DNA from: a virus
Taxonomy: Duplodnaviria; Caudoviricetes
Virus record (IMG/VR): IMGVR_UViG_3300044674_002650
Location: 1 to 24,793 of that record
Direction: 5' to 3' (one strand)
DNA length: 24,793 nt
The notes below the pieces were generated by a model. The model saw only the letters and a list, made by a program, of their open reading frames with translations. It was not told the origin of the DNA and made no database searches. Positions 1,021 to 17,570 of the stretch are shown here, one piece after another (positions within the stretch are counted from its first letter, which is position 1; every line of letters starts with the position of its first letter). The position numbers and the translations under genes are program-made.

Positions 1021-1255
1021 TTGGGCCGATACAGCCCCACCGTGCGGGACTGCGTTAAGTCCGCCAGACCTCAAGGATGAGGTGCTGACCCAGAGCCAGA
1101 GAGGCGAATCGCGAGTCACTGTATTGCAGGTGATCGACGGGAGGACCGGAGCGAGTGGGAACCCAACGACGGGGTATATCGGCGGCGACCGGAGGAGCAG
1201 GATGCTCGGCCAAGCATAAGCGGCACTCAGCGATGGTTGCGATCACCTTTTTGTC
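1021..1255 (+). ncRNA. Unclassified structured leader/sRNA with CsrA-type GGA hairpins
   Basis: No credible ORF. Long-range stem 1025-1038/1171-1183. Hairpins ACCTCA-AGGA-TGAGGT (1068-1083) and GAGCA-GGA-TGCTC (1195-1207). 9-bp complementarity 1128-1136/1240-1248. Bounded by the promoter and a hammerhead cleavage site. Confidence 0.5.
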
Positions 1256-1332
1256 GGGGTCTGAAGCTGACCCCCTGATGACCCAAACCACTGGGCATTG
1301 GTTACTCAATGGGCGGAGCACCGCCGAAACAA
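1251..1332 (+). ncRNA. Hammerhead ribozyme, type III, variant with two hairpins inserted between A9 and stem II (HHR1)
   Basis: TTGT-C(1255), stem I GGGGTC/GACCCC, CTGATGA (1275-1281), insert 1282-1311, stem II GGCGG-AGCA-CCGCC, GAAACAA. Loop I GCT is complementary to loop II AGC. Confidence 0.7.
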
Positions 1333-1348
1333 TCTGGAGATTAAAAAC

Positions 1349-3041: not shown

Positions 3042-3103
3042 CCCGTCTGATGAGCCTGTCTGGACGGCAGGCGAAACACCCTTCGGGGTGTCATGGGAAT
3101 CCA
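3042..3103 (+). ncRNA. Hammerhead ribozyme, type I (HHR3), predicted cleavage after C3092
   Basis: CCCGT-CTGATGA-GCCTGTC-tggac-GGCAGGC-GAAA-CACCC-ttcg-GGGTG-TC-ATGGG. Loop II TGGA pairs with tail TCCA (3100-3103). Confidence 0.95.
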
Positions 3104-4029: not shown

Positions 4030-4304
4030 ATGCTCAAGTTGAATCTATCGGACGCATGGTGTCTCTCGATGCCGCCGCGCAACGCAACGGCTGGGAGATC
4101 GTCCACGTCGAGGCAAACCAAACCGATGCCGTCGTGATGTTTGACCGAGGGGCTGACCGAAGCCCGCTCGGCCCTGAGAAGCGCTACGGCACCTCGGAGT
4201 TTTACTTCCCCGCTGGTTACTTCGGACAGGGTCATTACGACCTGAGTATCGATGAGGCGCGAGTCGATTTCCGAGAGCGCTGTAACCGCACCTTCCCCGT
4301 CTGA
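4026..4304 (+). CDS. Hypothetical protein (92 aa)
   Basis: ATGA overlap with the upstream stop and GGAGG RBS. Its TGA lies within the HHR4 core. Confidence 0.7.
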   Translation: MNAQVESIGRMVSLDAAAQRNGWEIVHVEANQTDAVVMFDRGADRSPLGPEKRYGTSEFYFPAGYFGQGHYDLSIDEARVDFRERCNRTFPV

Positions 4305-4358
4305 TGAGCTACCAGAGGAATACTGGTCGAAACCCGCTCCGGCGGGTCACGGGAATTC
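4296..4358 (+). ncRNA. Hammerhead ribozyme, type I (HHR4), predicted cleavage after C4348
   Basis: CCCGT-CTGATGA-G-ct-ACCAG-aggaata-CTGGT-C-GAAA-CCCGC-tccg-GCGGG-TC-ACGGG. Loop II GAAT pairs with tail ATTC (4355-4358). Confidence 0.9.
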
Positions 4359-4381: not shown

Positions 4382-4876
4382 ATGAAAACTATCGACATGA
4401 CCCCAACGTGGGAAGGGATCCTGCCCCTCTACATCGCAGGCATCGAGAGCGGCTCTTTCGAGGGCATCAAGAGCGCAACGGAAGAGCTTTACCGGATGGC
4501 GAGGCTGGCAGACATGCAAGTCGCCGCAGAGAAGGAACGCAACCTGACTTGGTCAATGGATAACTATCCACCCAAGTGGGAGCGACCCGTCCTGCTGGCA
4601 CTGGTCAAAGCCATCCTCAAGCGCGGTCACCCGATCTCAATCTGGATGGAAGACGAGCCAATCATCGAGCACTCCAGCGACCTCGCCGAGATCATCAAAA
4701 ACCTAGCCGCAGGCGATGGGGACGTAATCATCATGAATGACGGTCAGGGTGTGGGCTGGTTCAGCCTGATCTACAACAACGGCTCTGAGCATGAGCCGAT
4801 GATCGTGATCTCTGACTATTCAGCCAATGACGTGTGCGACGAGATCGTGCGCGAAGTCGAGCAGGAGGTGGGGTGA
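4382..4876 (+). CDS. Hypothetical early protein (164 aa)
   Basis: CAATCTGGAG RBS before ATG 4382. Confidence 0.75.
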   Translation: MKTIDMTPTWEGILPLYIAGIESGSFEGIKSATEELYRMARLADMQVAAEKERNLTWSMDNYPPKWERPVLLALVKAILKRGHPISIWMEDEPIIEHSSDLAEIIKNLAAGDGDVIIMNDGQGVGWFSLIYNNGSEHEPMIVISDYSANDVCDEIVREVEQEVG

Positions 4877-5190
4877 TGAGACACATCAAAGCCCTCGAAT
4901 GGCACACCTTCGAGTCAGCAGAGGAGGCCGCGAACGCGGCTTACCTCGCCCTCGTTATGGACTGTGCTGAGTACGACCAAGACCCGAACTATGAGGTGCA
5001 GATCTACTCCCCCGAGGAAAGCCAAAAGCGCGGCTACACCAGCGGCTGGCATCTCGTCTGGGAGTGCGGCCCTCATGGCTGGGGAGTCTCTCAATCAATG
5101 GCAATCGTCACTAGCGGGATCATCCCGTCTTGGGGTTTCTGTGAGACCCAGTGGGGATTCGACCTCATCTTCGTAGAGGAGGAAATGTAA
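4876..5190 (+). CDS. Hypothetical protein (104 aa)
   Basis: TGATG coupling and GGAGGT RBS. Confidence 0.7.
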   Translation: MRHIKALEWHTFESAEEAANAAYLALVMDCAEYDQDPNYEVQIYSPEESQKRGYTSGWHLVWECGPHGWGVSQSMAIVTSGIIPSWGFCETQWGFDLIFVEEEM

Positions 5191-15744: not shown

Positions 15745-15908
15745 TATATCAAACGGTTATATAGGACCGGATGATGTGCTCACCATGGAGCACTGCATAA
15801 AAAATGGCTACGTAGCTCAGTTGGTTAGAGCACAGCATTCATAATGCAGTATTCCACAGTGACCACCTCATTCGCCCTTATAACTTAACTGTCTATATCA
15901 AAATATAG
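15744..15908. promoter_or_regulatory. IHF-like sites flanking the att core
   Basis: CTATATCAAA direct repeat (15744, 15893). TATCAAACGGTTA (15747-15759) matches WATCAANNNNTTR exactly; the second copy has one mismatch. Confidence 0.6.
15806..15847 (+). other. attP identity block: 5' half of elongator tRNA-Met(CAT)
   Basis: GGCTACG-TA-GCTC-AGTTGGTTA-GAGC-A-CAGCA-TTCATAA-TGC, after which similarity stops. No T-arm or 3' acceptor strand. Lies 70 nt from int. Confidence 0.85.
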
Positions 15909-17174: not shown

Positions 17175-17570
17175 CCTGACCTCCTTCTGAGAACATCATC
17201 ACAGCTTCTATTATACCGCGAAATGGCAAAGTCAAAGGGGGTTTCGGTGGTTCAGATTTTTCCCGCCAAAAATATTTTTTGTGATTTATTAACGCCGTAA
17301 AATCAATAACTTACGAAATGTCAGGGACAAAAATAGCCATTTTTTTGGCCATTTATTGCGGGATTCAGCCCACCAAATCCTCGTTTTTCGGGTGCAAGGC
17401 CTAGTGTTTATGCGGGTTTCAGCCCCACGATCCAAGGAAAATAGGATTTCGGAAAAGTACGTTTGATATGATGATCACATCACGCGCATCGTGACGTGTG
17501 AGAAAGGGGCCGGTGGGAGAACCACCTCCACACCGGCAGATGGCACAGGAACAATCTGGAGGAAAGACCC

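Follow-up and report, generated by a model that had tools for sequence, protein, structure and literature searches.

A phage type III hammerhead variant with two hairpins inserted between A9 and G10.1

No small ribozyme has been studied more than the hammerhead, and the search logic of a 2023 survey, in the part of its text available to us, assumed a separation of no more than 1-2 nt between the catalytic core and stem II (PMC10085705). In the window, which here means the whole stretch of 24,793 nucleotides that was analysed, an RNA with the parts of a type III hammerhead carries 30 nt at this very point, folded into two hairpins and placed ahead of the first gene of an early phage operon. This raises the question of whether such an element is a working hammerhead, how its core could accommodate the insert, and what its cleavage would do to the early mRNA.

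The element and its close relatives

The window is a linear phage record, ~47% complete, with terminase, holin, primase/helicase, recombination and integrase genes. Its rightward early operon begins after TATAAT at 1010-1015 and contains four hammerhead-like elements, each followed by the ribosome-binding site (RBS) motif CAATCTGGAG and a gene; the first is a type III with an insert and the other three are type I. The TATAAT hexamer is kept in L005 and in most loci of the clade of close relatives, and is not among the promoters listed by a strict consensus scan. The features of this region are as follows.

1010-1015, + strand: TATAAT, promoter-like -10 hexamer ahead of the early operon (inferred; -35 element ambiguous)
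1021-1250, + strand: structured leader of ~230 nt, the predicted 5′ cleavage product, 78-98% identical in the clade loci
1243-1247, + strand: upstream strand predicted by folding to pair with the Shine-Dalgarno (SD) region, a weak extension of stem III
1251-1255, + strand: 5′ strand of stem III and GUC site (1253-1255), predicted cut after C1255; GUC in 29/29 distinct insert-bearing members
1256-1274, + strand: stem I, 6 bp (1256-1261/1269-1274), with loop I UGAAGCU (1262-1268); two-sided changes at 6/6 pairs (30 sequences)
1275-1281, + strand: catalytic core C3 to A9, CUGAUGA, read from the sequence
1282-1295, + strand: inserted hairpin A, loop (A/C)ACCAC, repeat family D8
1296-1311, + strand: inserted hairpin B; compensatory U-A to C-G change in L001, L002 and L331, same fold from another sequence in L327 and L328
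1312-1325, + strand: stem II, 5 bp (1312-1316/1321-1325) with G10.1-C11.1, loop AGCA, predicted contact with loop I; 4/5 pairs covary
1326-1332, + strand: G12 to A15.1 (GAAA, 1326-1329) and 3′ strand of stem III; the two outer pairs covary
1336-1339, + strand: Shine-Dalgarno GGAG inside the CAATCTGGAG motif common to the early genes
1349-2203, + strand: anti-restriction gene ardC, which opens the operon in this genome (PHROG 7245, E 9.5e-63; Pfam PF08401 and PF18818, ArdcN and MPTase-PolyVal)
2539-2595, + strand: HHR2, type I hammerhead with one extra U (2551) at A9/G10.1, predicted cut after C2590
2609-2624, + strand: second copy of hairpin A (D8), just 5′ of the RBS, then a 9-mer common to hairpin B
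3042-3097, + strand: HHR3, type I hammerhead, predicted cut after C3092
3109-3124, + strand: third copy of hairpin A (D8), just 5′ of the RBS
4296-4353, + strand: HHR4, type I hammerhead with a CU bulge (4309-4310) after G10.1, predicted cut after C4348

A first-pass annotation had read the element as a type III hammerhead carrying two hairpins between A9 and G10.1, and direct reading of the sequence confirmed every coordinate of it, as well as the extra U of HHR2 and the CU bulge of HHR4. The CUGANGA core, the GAAA and the NUH cut site stand in type III order, the blocks run S-C-G and not in one of the non-circular permutations SGC, CSG or GCS, and stems I to III all occur, with G10.1-C11.1 and A15.1-U16.1, stem III having 4 bp (1251-1254/1329-1332). 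Because the 30-nt insert (1282-1311) breaks the usual layout, a three-way junction with A9 and G10.1 at most 1-2 nt apart, the element was filed as a hammerhead variant. Hairpin B is present, but in place of the 5-bp drawing of the annotation a helix of 6 bp closing a 4-nt loop is preferable, the added pair being G1301-U1306, which in L331 is G-C; half of the GGUU in a proposed AACC/GGUU kiss between hairpins A and B can therefore lie in the stem. The kiss was not borne out, as the best complement between these loops is 1-2 Watson-Crick pairs in 10/10 two-hairpin variants. Stem III had also been described as using the first bases of the RBS motif; it does cover the ACAA, but GGAG itself lies outside.

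Relatives of the window clade were found via an ArdC search and a leader motif scan of metagenomes, giving 6 distinct variants of the element including that of the window. All six share an unchanged scaffold, with the same cut site, core, G10.1-C11.1 and loops I and II, while hairpin B carries the U-A to C-G double change in three variants, an additional G-U to G-C change in L331, and a different sequence with the fold retained in L327 and L328. The segment 1240-1350 folds with z = -3.2, with 0/200 shuffles folding equally well, and this result, together with the homologues keeping both hairpins through compensatory or wholesale change, indicates that the structure is more than chance.

Standard models do miss the element, as had been anticipated: it has no Rfam hammerhead match in the window at E≤1 and does not reach the gathering score of RF00008. 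At the same E≤1, Rfam also misses HHR2, HHR3 and HHR4, which are ordinary type I copies, so the miss is not specific to the insert. Among 15 insert-bearing loci scanned, only sub-threshold RF00008 matches were obtained, in 2, and the canonical type III in L007 likewise falls under the threshold (39.8 vs 48.5). The segment 1020-1345 has no match among annotated phage records.

Several further features were observed in the window. A pseudoknot is likely in HHR2 and HHR3 (2539-2600 and 3042-3102), where the GGAU of loop II can pair with an AUCC immediately 3′ of stem I. Repeat D2, a T-run/A-run element, is present in two similar copies at 611-649 and 2204-2242, the second just past the ardC stop, and is possibly terminator-like. 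A 76-aa ORF is preceded by a fifth CAATCTGGAG motif (17552-17561, + strand), where no hammerhead core was seen. ARAGORN found no tRNA or tmRNA; a weak, truncated tRNA-like match (15806-15865, Rfam E 0.89) just after the integrase gene is a possible attP.

An optional insert in a wider phage subfamily

Judged by its loops, the window element belongs to a phage type III subfamily with U-NNN-GCU in loop I and AGCA in loop II, and this RNA also occurs in unrelated phages, in which A9/G10.1 holds no hairpin, one or two. L106, with the same stem II and a 14-nt one-hairpin insert, was the starting point for a wider search of viral and genome sets, in which the CUGAUGA core was included in every pattern. 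The main family pattern gave the loop motifs and core bases and left the stems and the cut site unspecified. Its 34 viral matches comprise 30 insert-bearing hammerheads with stem I paired 6/6, stem II paired 5/5 and GUC, 1 canonical element and 3 noise matches. In the genome set, 2/41 matches are real (Devosia enhydra and a Cohaesibacter genome), and a further scan added two Spirochaetes contigs. A swapped-loop pattern gave 32 matches, none with a full stem I, which shows what chance matches look like, and found nothing real in genomes; loose patterns returned mostly noise, L106 and L097 being real among the matches listed. L127 and L178 were removed ahead of the count, being ambiguous or chance matches, L536 and L538 are noise, and L541 (Microvirga lupini, about 1500-1567), with the same scaffold and an extra hairpin inside loop II, was excluded from the count. 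Loop II is 6 nt long in L465 and in L537/L539; of these, L465 belongs to the 30 aligned insert-bearing sequences but is outside the 69 members described next, and L537 belongs to neither set.

A short-insert search gave 60 canonical matches among 69 loci. All loci together contain 69 distinct members, of which 40 have A9 and G10.1 separated by 0-1 nt (mostly U) and 29 by 14-37 nt, with none at 2-13 nt. In two pairs of loci (L352/L508 and L345/L532) the 52-nt scaffold is identical although only one of the two carries an insert, and homologous uncharacterised genes follow both one- and two-hairpin forms. The bimodal lengths, the shared scaffolds and the shared genes behind one- and two-hairpin forms indicate that the insert is an optional module and, read from this distribution, it has been gained or lost more than once, at the bulged-U position. 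Two complete phage records each yield a single core match in the range of the pattern, the insert-bearing copy. Many insert-bearing hammerheads (L343, L350, L353, L364 and related ones) are directly followed by genes for one family of uncharacterised proteins of 170-370 aa, which lack Pfam matches and have hardly any PHROG matches; PHROG and Pfam matches are equally scarce for the genes that follow other members of the ribozyme family.

Covariation among homologues was proposed at first as a check on the architecture, and it agrees with it. Across the 30 insert-bearing sequences, 12/18 pairs change on both sides, including 6/6 in stem I and 4/5 in stem II, with a score of 0.656 vs 0.131 for shuffled sequences, and G10.1-C11.1 and A15.1-U16.1 are invariant (30/30). 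Since these 30 rows were pre-selected for pairing, it is the covariation, and not the percentage paired, that is informative here. The contact between GCU of loop I and AGC of loop II that the annotation had envisaged is likely, because L097, an insert-free member, has a GAC/GUC double compensatory change at positions left unspecified in its pattern; the loops are complementary in 30/30 insert-bearing sequences, a count in which the bases were largely imposed by the search patterns. The window loops also fit the 5′U/3′A motif as set out in the available portion of its source (PMC2632901). In the type III hammerheads of L007, L009 and L010 (cut sites 4931, 3112 and 4928), the loop sequences are swapped between stems I and II.

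A junction model and its competitors

When folded alone, two-hairpin inserts leave 0-0-0 unpaired junction bases in 8/10 cases, against at most 0.7% of shuffles and in about four independent lineages, L327 and L328 reaching 0-0-0 only via a lone C-G pair beside a U-U mismatch. One-hairpin inserts leave 2-5 unpaired junction bases in 20/20, with C-N-N-G in 16/20 and again in L537. Four helices can stack pairwise without a linker, and three need a bulge. The base counts match these junction stacking rules, from which we infer that the insert would be a four-way junction grafted on stem II. As described in the accessible text on the pseudoknot hammerhead, A9.G12 pairs next to G10.1-C11.1 (PMC11300833), so that the core extends stem II, and with 0-0-0 in two-helix inserts, what is a five-way junction on paper can be read as an ordinary hammerhead plus a grafted four-way junction. 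With A9.G12 stacked on G10.1-C11.1, the core end of stem II, the main part of that stem and hairpins A and B would meet without unpaired bases, in a perfect four-way junction from which hairpins A and B would be stacked sideways. One-hairpin members would instead have a 2-5-nt bulge, in which C-N-N-G could be what is left of hairpin B. Cleavage can probably do without the insert, which may modulate its rate or the folding of the RNA.

The reading we favour, and hold to be rather likely, is that the window carries a type III hammerhead with two hairpins at A9/G10.1 that likely self-cleaves after C1255, the hairpins being predicted to form a four-way junction that is optional and does not disturb the active site. 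The element is a genuine and conserved structural variant of type III that is probably active and whose A9/G10.1 position carries an optional helical module. One doubt about activity comes from folding predictions. In the predicted minimum free energy (MFE) structure of the window element, the CUGAUG core (1275-1280) is paired with the 5′ strand of hairpin B (1296-1301), 2.0 kcal/mol under the active fold, and this core-sequestering fold is the MFE in 5/6 clade variants and is predicted to form first during transcription. The gap of 2.0 kcal/mol is not decisive, because canonical relatives show gaps of 0-5.4 kcal/mol between active fold and MFE; in L345 and L364 the active fold lies less than 1 kcal/mol from the predicted MFE. 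A pairing of 1282-1285 with 1310-1313, which had been raised as the competing fold, does not appear as the predicted MFE. In its 3′ strand, hairpin B is similar to the catalytic core, as an exact copy plus a U in L364 (1129-1136, + strand) and as CUGAUG in L327 and L328, giving two possible registers.

Other explanations were weighed against the preferred one. If hairpin A were the real stem II, the extra material would lie between hairpin A and GAAA; Rfam aligns L343 and L348 in this register, at weak scores, and hairpin A of most one-hairpin members begins with G and ends with C, like G10.1-C11.1. However, hairpin A begins with C in the window and in all two-hairpin members, the G-C pair directly before GAAA is invariant (30/30), and the AGCA loop matches loop II of the insert-free twins, so that this register is scarcely credible. 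That the insert actively aids catalysis, pre-organising stems I and II and speeding folding at low Mg2+, and is selected for doing so, would agree with its being folded in 30/30 members and flush with A9 in 28/30 (shuffles 7-39%), and with the hairpin ribozyme, whose junction accelerates folding nearly 1000-fold according to the section available to us (PMC8216279). We nevertheless judge such a role improbable, since mere tolerance would likewise select folded, flush inserts, and insert-free members are commoner (40/69) and share identical scaffolds with insert-bearing ones. The sequestered core, with a minimum core unpaired probability of 0.08 in the window, could also mean that the ribozyme is slow or dead, its core trapped by a recombined leader hairpin and its sequence persisting as an RBS and leader scaffold; hairpin A and the 9-mer are common to the HHR2 leader in the same order, which suggests a recombinational origin. 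Yet the cut site, core, G10.1-C11.1 and loops have stayed identical across the six clade variants while hairpin B compensates or is replaced, and GUC is retained in all 29 distinct insert-bearing members, which makes a dead ribozyme highly unlikely. A point against the preferred reading is that insertions of 2 nt near C3 impair cleavage, in the consulted part of Perreault 2011 (PMC3088659), though at a position other than A9/G10.1.

A regulatory role for the clade insert finds more in its favour. The loop of hairpin A is AACCAC in 3/3 copies in the window and CACCAC in 3/3 copies in both L002 and L003, so the three copies in the early leaders vary in concert, and L005, without leader and ribozyme, has an ACCAC loop on a flipped stem (4964-4979) directly before the ardC RBS. 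The keeping of this loop on a flipped stem suggests recognition specific to the loop or its sequence, and the ACCAC-loop hairpin before early-gene RBSs is a candidate protein operator. The clade insert might accordingly be a switch, in which a protein on the (A/C)ACCAC loop shifts the balance between sequestered and active folds and gates or times both cleavage and early translation; all three clade variants of hairpin B keep 5-6 pairs with the core, and the core-like 3′ strand of hairpin B in L364 and L327/L328 would make strand displacement possible. Against this, the complementarity to the core is weakly above that of shuffles (p 0.016-0.39, clade), is absent from one-hairpin forms and could be a relic of an inverted duplication, gene conversion among the repeats also explains the concerted loops, the loops of hairpin A are unrelated outside the clade, and the binding protein is hypothetical. 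We regard the switch as possible though doubtful. The unpaired bases and loops of the insert are not conserved family-wide, which disfavours a shared small-molecule aptamer, and the ACCAC loop is conserved in the clade and in other leaders. A broader proposal, that A9/G10.1 is a natural plug-in socket, the clade hairpin a shared protein operator and the element a protein-gated hammerhead timing release of the 230-nt leader and translation of the first early gene, seems to us unlikely.

Leader release and comparison with known ribozymes

On the preferred reading of an active hammerhead with an optional insert, the most likely role of the ribozyme is to cut the 230-nt structured leader off the first early mRNA. 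The leader (1021-1250) has no Rfam match, and its motif has no match in genome contigs. It shows compensatory changes in one stem within the clade and also between the window and L009, has a 40-41-nt insertion in some relatives and is absent in L005. Its 5′ part (about 90 nt) recurs in the more distant phage L009 (2474-2555; 79% over 87 nt), with no hammerhead seen directly behind it there. In L007 (about 4700-4925) and L010 (about 4700-4922), ardC is preceded by a type III hammerhead of canonical form, and a different, GC-rich leader of ~230 nt separates this hammerhead from the promoter. This recurring order, in which a promoter is followed by a leader, a type III hammerhead, an RBS and the first gene, suggests that cutting frees a leader RNA. 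Cleavage would release the 230-nt leader from the first early mRNA and leave the cut mRNA with a 5′-OH, a terminal hairpin and a modestly opened RBS, and the three downstream hammerheads would act likewise for the next genes. Such a 5′-OH end and terminal hairpin would stabilise the mRNA.

The effect on the RBS is, in these predictions, modest and not specific. The predicted cost of opening the RBS falls after cleavage from 2.9 to 1.6 kcal/mol in the window and is lower in 6/7 clade cassettes and higher in L331; the loss of upstream RNA of whatever kind tends to make an RBS more accessible. In the active fold of the window, 1243-1247 is predicted to be paired with the SD; the surrounding 1240-1250, which we take to resemble the 3′ end of 16S rRNA, has only its last seven bases invariant in the clade. 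An SD-like motif lies within 30 nt in 24/29 insert-bearing and 30/40 insert-free members, so that RBS proximity is a trait of the family. The suggestion that the insert couples cleavage specifically to ardC did not hold, as the 7 distinct clade cassettes stand 4 times before an ArdC-type gene and 3 times before other genes, and in other loci the element ahead of ardC is an ordinary type I hammerhead (L001) or a type III of canonical form (L007 and L010), or there is none (L005).

Since 29/69 subfamily members break the 1-2-nt rule, descriptor and covariance searches miss a sizeable share of phage hammerheads. The natural twins, identical scaffolds with and without insert, make the effect of the insert directly testable, and if the insert-bearing twins cleave, A9/G10.1 would be an overlooked grafting site for aptamers or protein-binding hairpins that leaves the likely contact between loops I and II untouched. 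The insert-bearing family is also a handle on the role of phage hammerheads.

A literature search found no description of hairpins at A9/G10.1, and supplementary alignments could contain such variants. A paper from 2026 refers to Weinberg 2015, Eckert 2023 and Forgia 2023 for hammerheads that have extra helices (PMC13725137); the hammerheads of Forgia 2023 are only length variants in the portion available to us, the divergent hammerhead cluster of a 2026 preprint is described as three-stem (10.64898/2026.10.21.760802), and the accessible text of PMC6765202, PMC5737381, PMC11014351, PMC13481778 and 10.64898/2026.09.16.752053 holds nothing closer. Outside the hammerheads, the hairpin ribozyme has a perfect four-helix junction, with two poorly conserved auxiliary helices and no unpaired bases (PMC8216279, available sections); it is a different class, and its suggested likeness to the window element is one of secondary structure only.

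Within the hammerheads, the pseudoknot hammerhead with helix IV, which is the extra-helix variant of Weinberg 2015, is likewise a natural hammerhead with an additional helix but, as far as the consulted text describes it, its helix II is replaced by a pseudoknot, helix IV is linked to helix I, and A9 runs straight into G10.1 (PMC11300833). The window element instead keeps stem II intact (5 bp, 4 covarying) and has its extra helices interrupting A9-G10.1, and is not of the pseudoknot type. CChMVd(+) is reported to have a single extra base at A9/G10.1. Hammerheads of the CChMVd type with 5′U in loop 1 and 3′A in loop 2 (Dufour, PMC2632901, as partly consulted) share with the window element a seven-base, U-initial loop 1, a penultimate pyrimidine and an A-final loop 2; the window loops are additionally predicted to form three Watson-Crick pairs, GCU/AGC.

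The closest known system is the type III hammerhead of RF00008 in the intergenic regions of phages and prophages (Perreault 2011, PMC3088659), which has the same block order, core bases and three stems, and the contact between loops I and II that is likely in the window element. In the part of that study available to us, phage hammerheads likewise stand before small phage genes, several per operon, with anti-restriction genes near (ardA there), and core insertions are of only 1-2 nt. The window family differs from RF00008 by its folded 14-37-nt insert between A9 and G10.1. With the non-circularly permuted hammerheads of Eckert 2023 it shares a natural rearrangement around an unchanged core; that survey, in its accessible text, gives the known alignments as without insertions of more than 1-2 nt between CUGAnGA and the adjacent stems and treats these as an unbreakable block (PMC10085705), whereas the window family keeps the ordinary type III order and breaks the block itself.
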